From IMG/VR virus record IMGVR_UViG_3300025635_000140, positions 1 to 25,661 of that record: a stretch of DNA of 25,661 nt; one strand, given 5' to 3'. Below the pieces are notes generated by a model, which saw only the letters and a program-made list of their open reading frames with translations, had not been told where the DNA came from and ran no database searches. Source of the DNA: a virus (Duplodnaviria; Caudoviricetes). The position numbers and the translations under genes are program-made. Shown in pieces: positions 9,754-25,140 of the stretch. The number at the start of each line of letters is the position of its first letter. The first letter of the stretch is position 1.

Positions 9754-10196
9754 TGATCCGAGACGCCGTGCCAGACGACGCGCCCGCCCTGATCGACATG
9801 GGCCGCGCCTTCTTTGCCGAGGCCGGATGGGCGGACAAGGCAGAGTTCTGCCCTCAAAGCTTCGCCCAAACGCTGGGCCAATTGGCGGACCGGGGAATCC
9901 TGCTCGTGTTCGAGAAAGACAGGAAGCCGGTCGGCATGGCCGGGGCGCTCTACTCTCCCGCGTACTGGAACGAGAAAGTATTGATAGGACAAGAGCTTTT
10001 CTGGTATTGTGAGCCACTTCACCGCAAAGGTGCAGGCACCGAGCTTCTCAGGCAGCTCGAATCCGCCGCTAAGGCGCGCAACGTAAAATTCTTCGGCATG
10101 GTGGCGGAGCATGGGCTTCGTCATGAGGCGCTTGCTCAGGTCTACAAACGAGCGGGCTACTCAGTTGCCGAGCATACGTTCTGCAAGGCGCTCTGA
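9753..10196 (+). CDS. GNAT-family acetyltransferase-fold protein (P22 gp14 position)
   Basis: Start ATG 9753 (TAATG). MIRDAVPDD start, WYCEPLHRKGAGTELL acetyl-CoA motif, VYKRAGY. Confidence 0.85.
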   Translation: MIRDAVPDDAPALIDMGRAFFAEAGWADKAEFCPQSFAQTLGQLADRGILLVFEKDRKPVGMAGALYSPAYWNEKVLIGQELFWYCEPLHRKGAGTELLRQLESAAKARNVKFFGMVAEHGLRHEALAQVYKRAGYSVAEHTFCKAL

Positions 10197-10882
10197 TGGC
10201 GATTTTCTCTGCTCTCTCCGGCATGATTGCCCAGCAAGGCGCGCAGGCTGGCGGCAACATGGCCGCCAACGCCGCGAACCGTGCCGCGCAGATGCAGCAG
10301 GAGGAGGCGACCCGCGCCCGTGCGGCGGCCTCTCCCTGGACGGCTTCGGGCACCGCCGCAGTCGCCAAGATCACGAACCTGTTGGGCCTCGGCAGCATCG
10401 AGACCAACGGCGGCAACTATAACACCTATGGGTGGAATCCGAACGGCGCGAAGGAAAAGCAGGACGCGGCCTTTGCCGACTTCCAAACGACGCCCGGCTA
10501 TCAGTTCCGCATGGATGAGGGCTCAAAGGCCCTGGACCGCTCGGCGGCCTCGCGGGGAATGCTTCGCTCCGGCGCGCAGCAGAAGGCCATCACGGCCTTT
10601 GGGCAGGGCATCGCCAGCGAAGAGTACGGCAACTATATGGGCAACCTGCTGAGCCTGTCCGGCTTGGGCAATCAGGCTGTCTCATCCGTCAACAGCACAT
10701 CAGGTCAGCTTACGTCCGGCGCGGCCGACAACATTTACCGGGGAGGCGCGGCGCGCGGATCTGGTTACGCCGCTGGTGCCAACGCGCTGGCAAGCGGCAT
10801 TAGCTCGGGCGTCAACAATATCGTTAGTGGGCTGTCCTACGGCGGGCAGGGCGGGAAGCTTGGGCTTCCCAAGTGGTCCTGA
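10196..10882 (+). CDS. DNA transfer/ejection protein (gp7-like)
   Basis: Ala/Gly/Gln-rich; PGYQFRMDEG..RSAASRGMLRSG motif; synteny. Confidence 0.8.
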   Translation: MAIFSALSGMIAQQGAQAGGNMAANAANRAAQMQQEEATRARAAASPWTASGTAAVAKITNLLGLGSIETNGGNYNTYGWNPNGAKEKQDAAFADFQTTPGYQFRMDEGSKALDRSAASRGMLRSGAQQKAITAFGQGIASEEYGNYMGNLLSLSGLGNQAVSSVNSTSGQLTSGAADNIYRGGAARGSGYAAGANALASGISSGVNNIVSGLSYGGQGGKLGLPKWS

Positions 10883-11127
10883 TGGCAGATCTAGTAACAG
10901 GAAACACTGTCCCAGCTTACACGCTGGCACAACACCGCCCGTCTTTGGGGCAATTCAGTGCCGAAAGTAGGAGCGGTGAATGTCGGAGTGCTCCACACCA
11001 GCGGAACCGGGGCGCCGTACTGGCGCGGCTCATCAGAGCAGCCAGCCAAGACCAAAGCAATAAGCGCAAGGTATTTCATAACCCGGCAGCATCCTCCGGG
11101 TTTCTGCCGTTGGCAAGGGGCTTCTGA
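10882..11127 (+). CDS. 81-aa 'bridge' ORF of unknown function
   Basis: ATG 10882 overlaps the upstream TGA, and its own TGA (11125-11127) overlaps the downstream ATG; no recognisable motif. Confidence 0.4.
   Translation: MADLVTGNTVPAYTLAQHRPSLGQFSAESRSGECRSAPHQRNRGAVLARLIRAASQDQSNKRKVFHNPAASSGFLPLARGF
10891..11079 (-). CDS. Small antisense lipoprotein (62 aa), moron-like
   Basis: MKYLALIALVLAGC signal peptide II with a canonical LAGC lipobox; C-terminal Cys pair (CQRVSWDSVSCY). Confidence 0.75.
   Translation of the reverse strand: MKYLALIALVLAGCSDEPRQYGAPVPLVWSTPTFTAPTFGTELPQRRAVLCQRVSWDSVSCY
11088..11116 (-). promoter_or_regulatory. Putative sigma70 promoter for the lipoprotein gene
   Basis: Minus strand reads TTGCCA-N17-GATGCT, then 8 nt, then ATG. 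Confidence 0.45.
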
Positions 11128-13199
11128 TGGCGGGCATGCTGTTCCCCGACATCGGCGGGGCTTTGTCGGCGGGCTCGCAGGCGGGAGCCGCCAGCGCACA
11201 GAACCAATACCTGATGAAGGATCGCGCGGCGCGGGATGAGATCGCTCCGCTGATCCCCAGGGCACTGCAGGGCGACAAGGAAGCGCTCGGCCAGATCGGC
11301 GCGCGCCATCCTGACACGGCCATGAAGTTGGCTCCACTTCTGGAGCGCCTCGACGCCAGCCAGCGCGCCAAGGCCAAGGAAACAGCCGACTACATCACCA
11401 GCAACGGCATGGCCATTCTCAGCGCGCCCGCAGATCAACAGGCGGGGCTGTATGCCCGAGTTCGTGCCGAGGCCGCCGCCCAAGGGCGCAACGTCTCGAC
11501 GTGGCCCACGCAGTACGATCCCGGCTGGGTCAAGTTCAACGTAGACAAAGCAATGACCGTTGCTGAGTTCGGCAAGCGCAACGCGGAGCAACCTGTTCCC
11601 ATGCCCCCGCTTGATGGTGGCGGCGTGGCTCCGCCTTCGGCTGGTCCAGATGGCAGCGTCATCGACAGGGCAAGCGCCGCGTCCAAGAAACTTGAATCCG
11701 GTGGCCGGTATGACGCCGTCGGTCCTGTGGTCAACGACAAGGGAAATCGCGCGTACGGCGCGCATCAGGTGATGGACTTCAACATCGGCCCGTGGACGCA
11801 GGAAGTGCTTGGGCAGGCGATGACGCCGCAGCAGTTCCTTGCAAGCCCGCAGGCACAAGACGCCGTCTATAAAGCCAAGATGGGCCAGTACATTCAGAAG
11901 TACGGCAGCCCGGAAGCTGGCGCTCGCGCGTGGTTTGCGGGCGAAGGCGGCATGAACAATCCCGGCGCAAAAGATGTGCTGGGAACAACCGTCCAAGCCT
12001 ACGGTGACAGGTTTGCACAAGCCTATGGACCCGGAGCCACGGGAGGCGCGCAGCCTCCGGGCATTGCCCAAGGCTCCGACATGCCGGCCGGCGACGGCTC
12101 AGGCAATGCCCTCCCGCCGGCACAGCAGAATGCTCGCGAAATTCTTACTATCCGGCAGTTTGTCCATTCGCGGATTCCGGGCGCGTCCCCGCTTACCGTC
12201 AACGGATTTCCAGCCTACGACAAGAATGGTCGGCTCGGCATTCAGCTTCCTAACGGCCAGCGCGACTTTATCGACGTGCCCAAGCCCAAGGAGCCGGGAG
12301 CCGACAAGGGCTTGTATGGCGACTCCTTGACGGGGCGCGCATTGCAGGTTTTGCGTACAGCCGACCCTGGAAGTCAGGACTACGCGGCGGCCCGCGCCAT
12401 CCTGTCCAAGCCGCAGATGGTTCCGGACGGCAGGGGTGGCTTTGACGTTATTCAGCCGATGGATTTGTCCATGTATCCGCCTGCCACTTATGGCGGCGGT
12501 GGTGGGCAACCTGCTCCAAGCGGTCCCGCGCCCGGCGGCACGCCGCAAGTTCCTGGCGGCCCCACGATCACGAAAATCCCCGGCGCGGGCAAGCCGCTCG
12601 ACAACTCGGCGCGCGACGAACTCACCAAGGCCAGCGGCGGCGTGTTGGAACTGACGGAACTCGTCAAATCGTTTGACCCGTCGTTTGGCGGCTTCATTCT
12701 TGAAGGCAAAGGCGACGCCGATAATTGGATGAAGCGCAACCTCCCCGATGGGTTGGGCGGTGCCGATCCCAAGGGGCAGGCGCAGTGGTGGCAGCGTTAT
12801 AAGCAGTTCGCCAACCTTGAGCGCAACAAGCTGTTTGGCGCGGCGCTGACGCCGGGCGAGGCGGCAGCCTTCAACGAGGCCATGATTAACCCCGGCATGA
12901 AGCCGGACGAGATCAACAAAAACCTTACCCGCCAGCGGGACGTTGCCACCAAGGCGCTTTCCCGCATCGTCAACTCCATGGTCGCCGGGGGATACAACCC
13001 GCAGGCTATCGAGGCTGCGACGGGAATCCCCGTTGCCGACCTGCCGAGCGCCATGGGTGGCGTGCCGCAGGGCGCTCCGCCGGCCACCACGCCCGCGCCC
13101 GCACCAGTTCCGCAACAGCAGCCCGCGCCACAGACGCCGAGCCCTGCCGAACGGGGCCGCTCTCAGTTTGATCTCAAAAAGAAATACGGGCTTGAGTGA
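11127..13199 (+). CDS. Ejection protein with a lytic transglycosylase/lysozyme-like domain
   Basis: LESGGRYDA..AYGAHQVM..FLASPQAQD..YG..ARAWFAG at about 11660-12030; Pro/Gly linkers; synteny. Confidence 0.8.
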   Translation: MAGMLFPDIGGALSAGSQAGAASAQNQYLMKDRAARDEIAPLIPRALQGDKEALGQIGARHPDTAMKLAPLLERLDASQRAKAKETADYITSNGMAILSAPADQQAGLYARVRAEAAAQGRNVSTWPTQYDPGWVKFNVDKAMTVAEFGKRNAEQPVPMPPLDGGGVAPPSAGPDGSVIDRASAASKKLESGGRYDAVGPVVNDKGNRAYGAHQVMDFNIGPWTQEVLGQAMTPQQFLASPQAQDAVYKAKMGQYIQKYGSPEAGARAWFAGEGGMNNPGAKDVLGTTVQAYGDRFAQAYGPGATGGAQPPGIAQGSDMPAGDGSGNALPPAQQNAREILTIRQFVHSRIPGASPLTVNGFPAYDKNGRLGIQLPNGQRDFIDVPKPKEPGADKGLYGDSLTGRALQVLRTADPGSQDYAAARAILSKPQMVPDGRGGFDVIQPMDLSMYPPATYGGGGGQPAPSGPAPGGTPQVPGGPTITKIPGAGKPLDNSARDELTKASGGVLELTELVKSFDPSFGGFILEGKGDADNWMKRNLPDGLGGADPKGQAQWWQRYKQFANLERNKLFGAALTPGEAAAFNEAMINPGMKPDEINKNLTRQRDVATKALSRIVNSMVAGGYNPQAIEAATGIPVADLPSAMGGVPQGAPPATTPAPAPVPQQQPAPQTPSPAERGRSQFDLKKKYGLE

Positions 13200-15043: not shown

Positions 15044-16206
15044 GCGCGATATTCGCACCCCCGCGCTATAGCCCCATGTCGGGCAACGGCACGTCGTATC
15101 CCGGCGCAAAGCTGTACTTCTTTGAGACGGGCACCACGACGCCCAAGGATACCTTTTCCAACCCGGATCTGGACCCGTCCCACGTGCAGTCGCATCCGGT
15201 CGTAGCCGACGCCAATGGCCTGTTCGCTGCCATCTACTTGGAGACGGGCGACTATTCGATCATTCTGAAGGACGCCAGCGACAACGTTTTGTGGACGGTG
15301 GACCCGTATAGCGGACTGGGCGCAGCCGACACGCTCACCACGCGCGGCGACCTGCTGACTCGGGATGCCTCGGGCTACAAGCGCCTTGGAATCGGCGCCA
15401 GTGGAACGGTGTTGACCAGCAATGGCACGGACCCCCTGTGGTCCGCGCCGCCGATCCCGCGCGGGTCAATCCAGGGCCTGACCTACGCCAACAACGCCAC
15501 CGACGCGACGAACGATCTGGACATTGCAGTCGGCGCGGCGATGGACAGCACGAACGCGCGCATGATGGTTCTGGAATCGGCGCTGACCAAGAAGTCGGAT
15601 GCCGCATGGGCGGTGGGCTCCAATCAGGGCGCGCTTGATACCGGCGCAGCGGGCGATGCCGATTACTACATCTGGCTCATCAACCGGTCCGACACGAACG
15701 TCACGGACATTCTGTTTTCGCTGTCTCCCACGTCGCCGACGATGCCGACCGACTACAACTATCGGCGTCTCATTGGCTGGTTCAAGCGGGCCAGTTCGGC
15801 AATTGTTGCCTTCAAGACCTACGAACTCGAGGGCGGCGGGCTGGACTTCCGGTGGAACGTTCCTGGGCTCGACGTGGATTTGACCAGCACGCTCACCACC
15901 ACGCGCCGCACCGATGCGATCAAGGTGCCATTGGACTTCTCGGTTATCGCCTTGCTGAACGTGGTTGTTTACGACGCGACCTCGAATTTCGTCGCGCATG
16001 TCTATTGCCCGGACCAGACGGATGCCGCGGTGGCCAACTTCGATGCGCCGCTCGGCAACCTGAACCAGCAAGCCGGCACAGCCGCCTCCGCGACCCAACT
16101 GCATATCCGCACCAGCGCCGCCGGCCTCATTGCCGCTCGTGCATCCCTCGCCACGGTCGACCGCTATCAGGTTTCAACCCAAGGGTTCACCTGGGGCCGT
16201 CGATGA
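15040..16206 (+). CDS. Tail fibre / particle-anchoring protein
   Basis: N-terminal anchor pattern GAKLYFFETGTTTPK..PVVADANG; TRGDLL..RLGIGASGTVLTSNG fibre motif; beta-rich C-terminus. Confidence 0.75.
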   Translation: MSAIFAPPRYSPMSGNGTSYPGAKLYFFETGTTTPKDTFSNPDLDPSHVQSHPVVADANGLFAAIYLETGDYSIILKDASDNVLWTVDPYSGLGAADTLTTRGDLLTRDASGYKRLGIGASGTVLTSNGTDPLWSAPPIPRGSIQGLTYANNATDATNDLDIAVGAAMDSTNARMMVLESALTKKSDAAWAVGSNQGALDTGAAGDADYYIWLINRSDTNVTDILFSLSPTSPTMPTDYNYRRLIGWFKRASSAIVAFKTYELEGGGLDFRWNVPGLDVDLTSTLTTTRRTDAIKVPLDFSVIALLNVVVYDATSNFVAHVYCPDQTDAAVANFDAPLGNLNQQAGTAASATQLHIRTSAAGLIAARASLATVDRYQVSTQGFTWGRR

Positions 16207-16550
16207 GCGAAGCATCATTCATCAATGTAACGGCCTTTCAGCCTTTCGAAGGTGGCATTGGCAAGCGCCTGTCCGTGTCGACGACCAGCGCGCGTGTGCA
16301 GATCCCCGGCACGCAAGCGGTTTCCTCGCCCGATCGCCTGCGCATTCTCGTGACCAACAGCAACAGCTTTCCGGTGTCGATCCTGATGGGGCAGGACAGC
16401 GTGGAGGCGACGCTCGACTACCAAGAAATCATGCCGGGAACTCAGGTTCTTTTCACCCCGCCTGTCGTCGCTCCCGATGCCGTCTGGATCGCCGCGATTT
16501 CTGAAACCGCATCGGGCCACATCCAGGTCACGGCCGGATACGGAACATAG
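16203..16550 (+). CDS. Small beta-sandwich virion protein
   Basis: Start ATG 16203 (ATGA overlap); LSVSTTSARV..ITAGYG-type ending (QVTAGYGT); lies in the tail module. Confidence 0.65.
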   Translation: MSEASFINVTAFQPFEGGIGKRLSVSTTSARVQIPGTQAVSSPDRLRILVTNSNSFPVSILMGQDSVEATLDYQEIMPGTQVLFTPPVVAPDAVWIAAISETASGHIQVTAGYGT

Positions 16551-16559
16551 GAGAAAACA

Positions 16560-16865
16560 ATGGCCAATGAGTTCGATAGCGAGCGGCTGAGCTACACCGC
16601 GATTGCGGCCAGCCAGACGGGGGCACCGGCCTTTGCTGGCGTGGGCGCATACCTCTCGCATGTGGTGCTGCAGCCCGCAGCCGTAGGCGCTGGAACGACG
16701 ACCATCCTCGACGGAACGACGGTTATCTACACCTACACCGCCGGTACGCTGTCGGACCTTCGCCCCATCACCGTTCCGGTCGGCTCGCGAAGCCGCAATG
16801 GTTCGTGGAACATCACGACGGGCGCCAGCATGGCGGCTCTGGCGTTCGGCAAGGCCACCACCTGA
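16560..16865 (+). CDS. Small beta-rich virion protein
   Basis: AGGAG RBS; 101 aa rich in Thr/Ala/Gly; lies in the tail module. Confidence 0.65.
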   Translation: MANEFDSERLSYTAIAASQTGAPAFAGVGAYLSHVVLQPAAVGAGTTTILDGTTVIYTYTAGTLSDLRPITVPVGSRSRNGSWNITTGASMAALAFGKATT

Positions 16866-21921: not shown

Positions 21922-23165
21922 TGGCACAGGCGACGCTTACCGACGAAGCGTGCCAACAGGCGGCCGACGCAATGGCCCGGTTTGGCAGCCAGCGGGCGGC
22001 GGCTGATGCGCTCAATATGGCGCGGGCGACTTTCCAGCATAGACTACAGGAGGCGCAGCGCCGGGGCTTCCGGGCAGACGGCCCCGCAATGGTCATGAAG
22101 GGCCAGTCAGTCCTATACGACGCGGCGGGCAACGAGCGGGCGAGGTGGGACAAGACCCGCCTAGCCGGTCGCGCCGAGGCTGATACTCCCCAGTTTCCAG
22201 ATCCGAAACGGATTACCAAAATCTCGCGGCTCTTCGACCAGACCGGGGCCGTAACGCAACAGTGGGTGTCAGAGAAGGCCGACGATGCCACGCGCGAGGC
22301 CCTGTGGAGGGCCTTTGCGGAAGGGCTGTCCGAGGACATTGTCCGCGCCAAGCCGATTCCCGTGCCGGCGTTTGTGACTGACGACTTCCTGACCATTTAC
22401 GCCGTTGGCGACCATCACATGGGAATGCTTGCGTGGGGCGCGGAAACCGGCGGCGGAAATTACGACTTGGATATCAGCAGCAATCTCCTTGCAGGCGCGA
22501 TGACGTATCTCGCTGCATCTGTGCCGGCGAGCAAGCACGCGCTGATTATGTTCCTAGGCGATTTCACGCACACGGACGGCTATGCGGCGATGACGCCGGC
22601 ATCCGGGCATCTCCTTGACGCAGACGGTCGTTTTCCAAAGATCGCGTCTTCCGCCGCCCGAGCCATGCGCCATGCGATAGATACCGCGCTCAACAAGCAC
22701 GAGTCCGTTCATGTCATCGTGTCCGCCGGCAACCACGATCCGGTGTCCACGATCTGGCTGCGTATTGCGCTTGCCGCTGCCTACGAGAACGAACCGCGCG
22801 TGACCATCGACGAGACGCCCGGAAAATTCCACTATTTCGAGTGGGGCAAAAACTTGATCGGCGCGACGCACGCCGACCGACTTAAACTTGAGAGCCTGCC
22901 TGCCATCATGGCCACTGACCAACCGGAGGCGTGGGGCCGCACACTCTACCGACTGTGGCTTACAGGCCACGTCCATCACGACCGAGTTAAGGACCTTACC
23001 GGCGCCAAAGTCGAGAGCGTGCGCGTCTTGGCCCCGCTTGATGCCTACGCCGCAAAAGCGGGCTACCGCACGCCACGCGACATGAAGGCGATTATTTTTC
23101 ACCGCGAATACGGTGAGGCTGGGCGATTTATCGCCCCTGCCGCAATGTTTCAGGAGGTAGCATGA
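21921..23165 (+). CDS. HTH plus calcineurin-like metallophosphoesterase
   Basis: N-terminal GSQRAAADALNMARATFQHRL HTH; motifs GDHHMG, GDFTHTD, GNHD, THAD, GHVHH. Confidence 0.85.
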   Translation: MAQATLTDEACQQAADAMARFGSQRAAADALNMARATFQHRLQEAQRRGFRADGPAMVMKGQSVLYDAAGNERARWDKTRLAGRAEADTPQFPDPKRITKISRLFDQTGAVTQQWVSEKADDATREALWRAFAEGLSEDIVRAKPIPVPAFVTDDFLTIYAVGDHHMGMLAWGAETGGGNYDLDISSNLLAGAMTYLAASVPASKHALIMFLGDFTHTDGYAAMTPASGHLLDADGRFPKIASSAARAMRHAIDTALNKHESVHVIVSAGNHDPVSTIWLRIALAAAYENEPRVTIDETPGKFHYFEWGKNLIGATHADRLKLESLPAIMATDQPEAWGRTLYRLWLTGHVHHDRVKDLTGAKVESVRVLAPLDAYAAKAGYRTPRDMKAIIFHREYGEAGRFIAPAAMFQEVA

Positions 23166-23797
23166 CCGCTGAAATACTCGCGAACCAACAGGGTTTCTGC
23201 TATGAAAACGGAGTGACAGAGCGCGTCAACGCCCTGCCACCCCTGACCTTTTGGACCTTATCGGAGGCCCGCATGGCTAAGATCAAATTGCACCCGGAAT
23301 CTGACCCGCGCAAGCCACTCACGGCAGAACGTCTCCGCGAGATTCTTCACTATAACCAGGAGACGGGAATATTCACTTGGCGCGTTGCGAGGAAGGGGAC
23401 TGGCGGCGCTGGTTCTGTCGCAGGTCGTGTTAACTCTCGAAACGGCTATATCGACATCGGCATCGACTACAAGCGTTATCTCGGGCACCGATTGGCTTGG
23501 CTCTATATGACCGGGGTATGGCCCAAGAACGACATGGATCACCGCGACCGCAACCGCGCCAACAACGAGTGGGAAAATCTGCGAGAGGCGACACGCTCGC
23601 AGAACTTGGCGAATACTACAAAACGGAAAGACTGCGCCACACCGTTCAAAGGCGTGCAGCGAAATGGCAAAGGGTGGCAGGCGGTCATTATGGCGCGGGG
23701 TGTCCGCAAGTGCTTGGGCACATACGCTAACCCAGAGGATGCCGCCGCCGCCTACCGTCGCGCTGCGCTGGCTTTAAATGGCGAGTTTGCAACATGA
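23162..23797 (+). CDS. HNH endonuclease with C-terminal AP2 domain (own start probably ATG 23273)
   Basis: YNQETGIFTW, GHRLAWLYMTG, DHRDRNRANNEWENLREAT..N; AP2 motif FKGV..W.A.I..LGTY..EDAAAAY; GGAGG before ATG 23273. Confidence 0.92.
   Translation: MTAEILANQQGFCYENGVTERVNALPPLTFWTLSEARMAKIKLHPESDPRKPLTAERLREILHYNQETGIFTWRVARKGTGGAGSVAGRVNSRNGYIDIGIDYKRYLGHRLAWLYMTGVWPKNDMDHRDRNRANNEWENLREATRSQNLANTTKRKDCATPFKGVQRNGKGWQAVIMARGVRKCLGTYANPEDAAAAYRRAALALNGEFAT
23210..23275. other. Structured leader element, copy 2
   Basis: 14-bp stem 23210-23243, (C)TGACC, RBS-containing stem 23253-23270, ATG 23273. Confidence 0.6.
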
Positions 23798-24163: not shown

Positions 24164-24598
24164 TCAAGGCCGGCGGCTCTTCGGCTTCCACTCACCGTGA
24201 GGCGTGCGCCCGTTGAAACGGGTGAGGGCTCGGCCCAGCGAAGCGGCTTCGTTGCGGGCCTCGATACGCTGCCGAATTGATCCGATATCGTGCTGGCGCG
24301 TCTTATCAATAATCGCCCGCATGCCCGCGATAATCATCTCCGCCTGGTCGCGGATCTTAATCACAGCGGCTGGATCAGTCGGCCCCTCACCGAACGTGAT
24401 GCAGAGCTTCACGTCCTTCGTCTCGCTCTCGATCTGCTGCGGAGTATACAGCGAATAGCGGTCGGCGTCGTCGCCCGTGTGGGGGCTGGAGTCCAGTTCC
24501 TCGGCCGTGGGCAGCCCTTCGATGCTCTGCGGCCTGTGAGCCCGGCTGCGCCCGTGCGGTATCCTGTAGGGCCTGCCAGCCATGTGGGTGTCGCTCAT
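24164..24598 (-). CDS. Hypothetical protein
   Basis: 144 aa; AGGAGGAG RBS; ATGA overlap with the upstream HNH gene. Confidence 0.7.
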   Translation of the reverse strand: MSDTHMAGRPYRIPHGRSRAHRPQSIEGLPTAEELDSSPHTGDDADRYSLYTPQQIESETKDVKLCITFGEGPTDPAAVIKIRDQAEMIIAGMRAIIDKTRQHDIGSIRQRIEARNEAASLGRALTRFNGRTPHGEWKPKSRRP

Positions 24599-25128
24599 TT
24601 GCTCTCCTCCTTCCCTGGGGGGATTTGTTCGCTACGCGCTGCGGGCTTGTACGCTTTAAGGTGGCGGCCTTTCCGCACCTTGTCGGCCGCGTTGTCCTTG
24701 TGCGTTCCCAGAAACAGATGCGCCGGATTGCAGCAAGACCGGACGTCGCACTTGTGGCAAACGACAAGGCCAGCTGGGATGGGCGAGTTCACAGCCTCCC
24801 ACGCGGCTCTGTGCGTGCTGATCGTAACGCCGTTAACGCGGATTCGCCCGTAGCCCGCGCCCGACATAGATCCCAACCAAAGCAGGCACCCGCTGTTTGG
24901 TTCGGGGATAGTCGAGACCTCAAGTCGCTCGCGCATTGACAGCCCCCTGGGTGGGTATCGGCGCTCTTTTGTGACGACTGCCGGCGCCTCGTACTTCTTT
25001 CTATGAAGAACTGCGCATGTGTAACTGCAACACATTGGGACGCCGCGCTCCTTGGCGCGATTGATCCTTGAAATAGGCTTCATGCGGCGGCCGCCACACT
25101 CAGCGCACACGATCTCAGAAAGTGCCAT
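24595..25128 (-). CDS. HNH endonuclease (His-Me finger) with N-terminal Cys cluster
   Basis: CAECGG..CCSYTC; PEPNSGCLLW..GYG..HRAAW..VCHKCDVRSCCNPAHLFLGTHKDNAAD; AGGAGG 6 nt before ATG 25128. Confidence 0.9.
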   Translation of the reverse strand: MALSEIVCAECGGRRMKPISRINRAKERGVPMCCSYTCAVLHRKKYEAPAVVTKERRYPPRGLSMRERLEVSTIPEPNSGCLLWLGSMSGAGYGRIRVNGVTISTHRAAWEAVNSPIPAGLVVCHKCDVRSCCNPAHLFLGTHKDNAADKVRKGRHLKAYKPAARSEQIPPGKEESK

Positions 25129-25140
25129 TGTCACCCTCCT

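Follow-up and report, generated by a model that had tools for sequence, protein, structure and literature searches.

The window analysed here is the whole of a 25,661-nucleotide stretch of viral DNA (IMG/VR record IMGVR_UViG_3300025635_000140), and matches to PHROG and Pfam families indicate that it holds the structural half of a P22-like podovirus. Its genes are arranged in the order terminase, P22-type portal, scaffold, coat, gp10-like, GNAT and gp7-like, followed by large genes in the gp20 and gp16 positions. The placement of the gp20-position gene after the gp10-, GNAT- and gp7-like genes is the order found in P22. Most gene junctions in this structural half are stop-to-start overlaps. Two HNH endonuclease genes are located on opposite strands near the window end (23162-23797, plus; 24595-25134, minus). 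The sequencing runs that contain window DNA are freshwater or plankton metagenomes, and a search of GTDB genomes yielded only distant relatives of gp7. Four runs aligned to 10700-11300 give partial coverage with no variants, and no reads of the one RNA run align there. The phage group is classed as temperate because a tyrosine integrase is encoded in four of five relative records, including all four near-complete ones. The host would be a member of the Alphaproteobacteria, judging from cargo homologues and promoter style.

The features at and around the junction between the gp7-like gene and the gp20-position gene are as follows.

10196..10882, plus strand: gp7-like DNA ejection gene, 228 aa (phrog_598 'DNA ejection', E 3e-32), whose TGA overlaps the ATG of the bridge
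10880..10884, plus strand: 5' TGATG stop/start overlap, read from the sequence, an inherited ancestral junction
10882..11127, plus strand: bridge frame of 81 codons, in register with the antisense gene, its peptide unconserved
10891..11079, minus strand: antisense lipoprotein gene (the cargo), 62 aa, with a signal peptide, a lipobox, a variable Pro-rich linker and a C-terminal Cys pair
11038..11049, minus strand: lipobox LAGC, residues 11-14 of the cargo, read from the sequence by the pattern of lipoprotein signal peptides
11088..11093, minus strand: predicted -10 hexamer GATGCT of the cargo promoter, 8 nt before the cargo ATG and so near-leaderless
11111..11116, minus strand: predicted -35 hexamer TTGCCA of the cargo promoter, putative in function
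11115..11120, plus strand: SD-like AAGGGG for the downstream gene, overlapping the -35 element of the other strand, with a G-run conserved in relatives
11125..11129, plus strand: 3' TGATG stop/start overlap, replaced in relatives by TAATG, TAGTG, ATGA, GTGA, GTGGTAG or ATGAATAG
11127..13199, plus strand: gp20-position ejection gene, 690 aa, named by synteny (phrog_24990, function unknown) and stop/start-joined to the next gene

The initial annotation had drawn attention to a plus-strand frame that encloses an antisense gene and is coupled at both ends, and this description is confirmed. TGATG occurs at 10880-10884 and again at 11125-11129, and an unbroken 81-codon frame runs from the ATG at 10882 to the TGA at 11125-11127. 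Both strands are open, and the antisense ORF (11079 to 10891) lies wholly within the plus frame, exactly codon-to-codon. No PHROG or Pfam match was found for the bridge peptide. A second bridge was suspected at 16215-16661, where there is a 148-aa minus-strand ORF, and was rejected: the real genes there are on the plus strand. The region 16203-16865 holds two small plus-strand genes, stop/start-joined to their outer neighbours and located before a 293-aa ORF region, and the minus-strand ORF is their shadow.

The cargo of the window, MKYLALIALVLAGC, is a 62-residue protein with a signal peptide and a lipobox cysteine at position 14. There are 12 homologues besides itself, and Cys14, Cys51 and Cys61 are invariant among them. 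The lipobox pattern is present in all 21 cargos collected in this study, and its cysteine is invariant in the 18 that were aligned. Values of dN/dS are 0.12-0.47 over nine pairs of relatives (0.15-0.47 for pairs that include the window). The antisense ORF is judged to be a real gene under purifying selection because of the homologues with their invariant cysteines and these dN/dS values. A promoter-like arrangement, TTGC(C/A)A-N17-hexamer, is conserved in nine of the ten complete cargo junctions of the window's own lineage, and it falls below the threshold of a consensus scan.

Family searches with the window cargo returned no significant match, including none to Cor, Llp, Ltp or SieA, and the short cargo has no match among annotated phages. 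Matches in the ESM Atlas are below 0.9 and unnamed, one cargo homologue has a weak LPAM_1 match (E 0.052), and a search of viral contigs with the DNA pattern of the cargo C-terminus found nothing. The short cargo (10891-11079) and its homologues P0123-P0134 are nearly fixed over the N-terminal 25 residues and variable in the Pro-rich linker and the C-terminal Cys hairpin. Cargos look mosaic, with either the hairpin or a helical GKMTEAE domain in common. An AlphaFold model of the long cargo (pLDDT 82.8) has a helical domain and a C-terminal hairpin, and has no fold match at E<=0.001 in PDB or BFVD.

The cargo families also occur elsewhere (145 representatives; 5 of 401 alphaproteobacterial genomes; CC0125). 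Homologues of the long cargo are found in low-GC alphaproteobacterial genomes (L293-L295), and two of these (L293, L294) are divergent from a small gene that by eye resembles an HTH regulator, outside any ejection module. A distant homologue of the long cargo (24% identity) is present in a Proteus P22-like phage (L254:3962-4438), where it fills the sieA position after gp16 and has no bridge.

Taken alone, the openness of the window frame is near chance. In its register, plus-strand stops arise only from cargo TTA, CTA or TCA codons, and such stop-making codons account for 5.6% of Leu and 7.1% of Ser codons in window genes. The frame stays open in 63% of synonymous re-draws and in 44% when the non-coding leader is also shuffled (P(open) 0.44-0.63), under a null whose codon pool leans on downstream genes. 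The same register is likewise open in 150 of the 209 genes with 60-170 aa that were taken from 800 kb of a chromosome of 65% GC. In-register openness is thus cheap at this GC; what carries the signal is the coupling at both ends together with the matching frame, not openness as such.

Three kinds of query were used to gather loci for comparison (gp7-like protein, downstream gene, cargo); the bridge was never a query. The resulting set has 163 distinct gp7 junctions, in 146 of which the sequence continues for at least 300 nt beyond the stop. Of the 163, 10, the window included, are complete and carry the antisense lipoprotein, with one more truncated. Dropped before counting were L072, L221 and L236, in which matches to the lipobox pattern lie antisense inside the directly following long gene, together with identical junction copies and the truncated loci L182, L261 and L275, which are open as far as their sequence goes. 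All 10 complete cargo junctions of this first lineage keep an open frame, with 80-171 codons. Their bridges start with ATG, GTG or TTG and end in TGATG, TAATG, TAGTG or GTGGTAG on the downstream start. In L084, the gp7-like gene has lost its stop and extends to another, 10 nt beyond where the bridge starts; even so, the frame is open.

A second lineage was found by means of a cargo homologue. Its upstream gene belongs to phrog_6121 and is unrelated to phrog_598 (BLASTP E 0.2). The 21 loci represent 13 distinct junctions (8 are identical copies), of which one is empty, two are truncated and ten are complete with antisense cargo; the addition of L257 gives 11 complete junctions, and all 11 are bridged. 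The cargo of L277 is a CC0125-family lipoprotein, and its single CTA codon, the only stop-making Leu/Ser codon that it has, is the bridge stop itself, inside the ATGAATAG overlap. A third cargo family is found in L264/L269/L270 and L272/L278 (47% identical between these groups), where cargo and bridge are out of register. The chance openness of these five junctions is 0.024-0.16, and in L264 the sole stop-making dicodon among eleven candidates is the bridge stop. In these five junctions and L277, the 5' end of a downstream PAPS-reductase-like gene coincides with or contains the start of the cargo. In L264, L267, L272 and L277 (after about position 2870), a PAPS-reductase-domain gene lies between ejection genes, and in L267 it is coupled on both sides.

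Relatives with different cargo were proposed at the outset as a test of whether an open plus frame is kept irrespective of its amino acids, and this is what they exhibit. All 21 complete cargo junctions are open, with 67-171 codons, in two lineages and with three unrelated cargo families. The stop/start overlaps, of 1 or 4 nt or a few more, are present at the 3' end in 21 of 21 junctions and at the 5' end in 20 of 21, the exception being L084, in which the bridge start lies 10 nt before the upstream stop. Start codon, stop codon and overlap type all vary among bridges; seven different 3' overlaps are found, and all three stop codons are used (TGA, TAA, TAG). Altogether the 21 bridges contain 2,316 codons and no stops, versus 94 and 67 stops in the other two plus frames. 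Of 120 distinct Leu/Ser codon states, 4.4-7.6 would be expected to create an internal stop, and none does. In each of the 16 in-register junctions, the bridge start precedes the cargo stop by 9 nt, and the gaps from cargo ATG to downstream start (44, 47, 59 and 62 nt) are all 2 mod 3. The 21 junctions are non-independent and fall into 7 classes with 3 unrelated cargo families. The joint P(open) over all 7 classes comes to 2e-4, and with a single representative of each family it is about 7e-3, without a 1/3 frame factor. In addition, every independent cassette has to arrive in the right phase, with a chance of roughly 1 in 3 even if duplication provides both ends.

The second proposed comparison, of dN/dS on both strands, gives 0.58-3.3 for the bridge versus 0.12-0.47 for the cargo, and indicates that the peptide itself is not what is kept. 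Most substitutions fall at third positions of cargo codons. L262 and L265, compared over 91 shared codons, differ at 3 cargo residues versus 29 bridge residues.

Lone antisense genes on a chromosome of 65% GC served as a control, which relied on the author's own gene caller. Only 2 of 22 such calls (up to 200 aa) passed a loose test; one of these was a miscall, the shadow of an authentic gene, and the other showed no overlap at either end, only gaps (13 and 11 nt). A true double overlap was found in none of the 21 lone antisense genes of that chromosome. Among enterobacterial P22-like phages, none of 10 antisense genes after gp16 is bridged, although these are low in GC, unmatched and outside the coupled trio, and 13 annotated regions that were examined have no gene between 7, 20 and 16. 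The bridge device is therefore not universal.

Empty and filled junctions reveal how the cassette is placed. In the close empty relatives L002-L010 and L158, the two flanking genes are joined directly, and the filled junction of L180 retains the first bases of the old downstream gene of L158. L267 is the empty form of L272, with the insertion just after the old ATG and CATGA re-created. The insertion point of the cassette lies directly behind the start codon that the downstream gene used to have, and that codon now begins the bridge. The 5' overlap, inherited from the empty junction, is not separate evidence for selection. On the gp7 tree, the distribution of the cassette takes three gains or losses, at least two of which are forced by the starred branches. 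The empty L002-L010 fall within the gp7 clade that bears the cassette, and their gp20 allele is a distant one (30% identity), which suggests that cassette loss came with a swap of the gp20 allele that restored a direct GTGA overlap. At the same gp7 junction, there are also sense-strand small genes, stop/start-coupled at both ends, in the distant relatives L099:869-1357 (162 aa) and L127:1003-1131 (42 aa). Judging from these two, the gp7 junction seems to reject any polar insertion.

The repeated TGATGGC around the frame had been offered as a possible insertion duplication. By itself the repeat is no proof of duplication because three of the five other copies in the window, which has seven in all, are also stop/start junctions; TGATGGC is this phage's ordinary junction. 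Duplication can nevertheless explain the origin of the ends, as in L267 versus L272 and L158 versus L180, but not their persistence through changed starts, stops, overlap types and cargo.

The initial annotation also held that the downstream gene lacks a strong SD. This does not apply in the window, where AAGGGG at 11115-11120 is a moderate motif (-6.3 kcal/mol with the anti-SD), and pairing is -6.3 to -10.5 kcal/mol in the 16 junctions with a separate cargo promoter region. It does apply in the six junctions L264/L269/L270, L272/L278 and L277, where the PAPS-reductase-like gene is without a usable SD (-3.7 to +0.3 kcal/mol). Local folding at the downstream start of the window is stable (-29.8 kcal/mol, second of 23 starts), and since such a stable fold is inconsistent across relatives, occlusion of the start is not claimed. 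In L013, L084 and L180, there is a predicted hairpin with the downstream start codon in its loop and the SD-like run paired, a layout that is absent in some relatives and would be as expected for a start that needs an upstream ribosome.

We consider it fairly probable that the plus frame is a selected bridge, indifferent to its peptide, which likely relays ribosomes across the backwards lipoprotein gene so that the ejection genes stay translationally coupled. In a lysogen, the lipoprotein would be made from its own predicted promoter and would probably block superinfection at the envelope. During lytic growth, ribosomes that end gp7 would restart on the bridge, cross the cassette, stop at the second overlap and restart on gp20, perhaps aided by the SD-like G-run. 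Such a relay would keep the stoichiometry of the ejection proteins and leave no ribosome-free RNA for Rho. The junction might then serve as a cargo slot in which the only surviving cassettes are those that leave the frame open and in phase. The crossing by ribosomes, and hand-over as opposed to anti-polarity as the selected benefit, we infer from sequence comparison. A role for the cargo in superinfection exclusion is a guess from its position and type and from the comparison with P22 SieA.

The main rival holds that the frame is translated and selected for ribosome occupancy, as a shield against Rho, RNase III or head-on polymerase collision, with gp20 initiating from its own SD. The conserved SD-like G-run before the downstream start in 16 junctions speaks for it, as does the fact that an untranslated stretch is a recognised weak point of noncontiguous operons (PMC11034616). 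For occupancy an exact overlap would be superfluous, whereas in every junction the stop of the bridge and the downstream start do overlap, and six junctions have no usable SD. For Rho in particular, the bridge strand has no excess of C over G of the kind usual at Rho loading sites (C/G is 0.85-1.18 across 11 complete bridges). The exact 3' overlap, achieved by seven geometries, and the SD-less cases favour ribosome hand-over, and we regard occupancy as the sole benefit as unlikely, though protection from Rho, RNase III or polymerase collision may contribute. The gp20-like gene of the window, which has an SD-like motif, might initiate on its own. By analogy, the G-run at 11115-11120 would be no argument against hand-over because SD motifs aided re-initiation in four of five E. 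coli pairs, as given in section 9 of PMC6728339.

A neutral origin, with the start region duplicated during insertion and with codon bias in a GC-rich gene keeping its antisense frame open, is compatible with the near-chance openness in the window, with the chromosomal genes open in the same register, and with the empty/filled pairs that keep the old start and repeat CATGA. It does not account for the out-of-register bridges with their low chance of openness, for the missing internal stop-makers, or for a phase kept through non-coding indels and cargo swaps while the stop codon varies between TGA, TAA and TAG and stays a stop; nor did the control chromosome contain a true double overlap. The comparative data thus largely refute this explanation, which we consider improbable. 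Still less probable is that the bridge encodes a functional protein, either as one member of an antisense overlapping gene pair or as an older gene overprinted by the lipoprotein. The real small genes coupled at both ends in L099 and L127 are a precedent for coding at this junction, but the bridge has no family matches, its dN/dS values give no indication of purifying selection on a protein, and its residues diverge between L262 and L265 while the cargo is nearly constant. Overprinting is further opposed by the occurrence of the cargo families at other locations.

The favoured reading, a selected frame that hands ribosomes across the antisense cargo, resembles several known systems. In noncontiguous operons (PMC11034616; phage 80alpha ith/tha, PMC11087260), an antisense gene lies inside a co-directional run, as it does here, where it is located between co-directional genes of one module that empty relatives join directly. 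The antisense gene there has its own promoter, which here is only predicted, and in phages the two directions belong to opposite life-cycle states. The S. aureus atlas (PMC11034616) treats the stretch that is spanned as untranslated, points out the puzzle that this raises, and attributes read-through to transcription being uncoupled in Gram-positive bacteria. In contrast, a sense frame here covers the stretch and is coupled at both ends.

MIRUs, according to a review (PMC12548453), insert at a start codon and carry an ORF coupled to the next gene, such that they are non-polar, and their peptide is thought irrelevant. The insertion at the start codon and the re-coupling through the insert's own ORF (L267 versus L272; L158 versus L180) are similar. 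However, MIRUs are short repeated units, whereas a single-copy exchangeable cassette of about 200-520 nt occurs here once per locus, and the frame that would serve as relay is read from the strand opposite a genuine lipoprotein gene that is subject to purifying selection. Termination-reinitiation at ATGA or TGATG, including short ORFs that deliver ribosomes, involves the same overlap geometries and an SD motif in the upstream ORF (PMC6728339); here, in contrast, two hand-overs would follow in series, and the frame that carries them lies antisense to another gene, which constrains it.

In P22, sieA runs antisense next to the ejection genes, and its product prevents related phages from injecting (PMC10883804). 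This and other exclusion morons share with the present locus an antisense gene for an envelope protein beside the ejection genes of a temperate podovirus. However, sieA is located after gene 16, outside the coupled trio and with no bridge, and its product is a protein of the inner membrane rather than a lipoprotein. In E. coli, antisense overlapping genes (e.g. PMC9927249) also have both strands open over the same DNA, but these are proposed to be protein-coding, whereas selection here would act on phase and on the absence of stops and would leave the peptide free. Within the literature covered, largely that outside subscription journals, no description was found of a sense frame that is coupled at both its ends and stays open over an antisense gene.

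On the comparative evidence, the feature is real and selected, and it combines two known principles. The puzzle raised by noncontiguous operons (PMC11034616) is how expression continues across an untranslated antisense stretch where ribosomes and polymerase are coupled. This locus would be a concrete and cheaply testable answer, with natural replicates in the form of three cargo families, two relative frames and seven overlap geometries. We think the chances slightly better than even that peptide-less bridge frames represent a general design rule, one that makes coupled junctions of proteobacterial phage operons into exchangeable slots for antisense morons, answers how noncontiguous operons survive transcription-translation coupling, shapes the codon choice of the cargo from the opposite strand, and constitutes an unannotated class of translated but meaningless ORFs. 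If this is true, engineers would have a natural recipe for non-polar reverse insertions in phage operons, the codon usage of a moron could be set by the other strand, and some of the 'shadow ORFs' discarded by annotation would be under selection.
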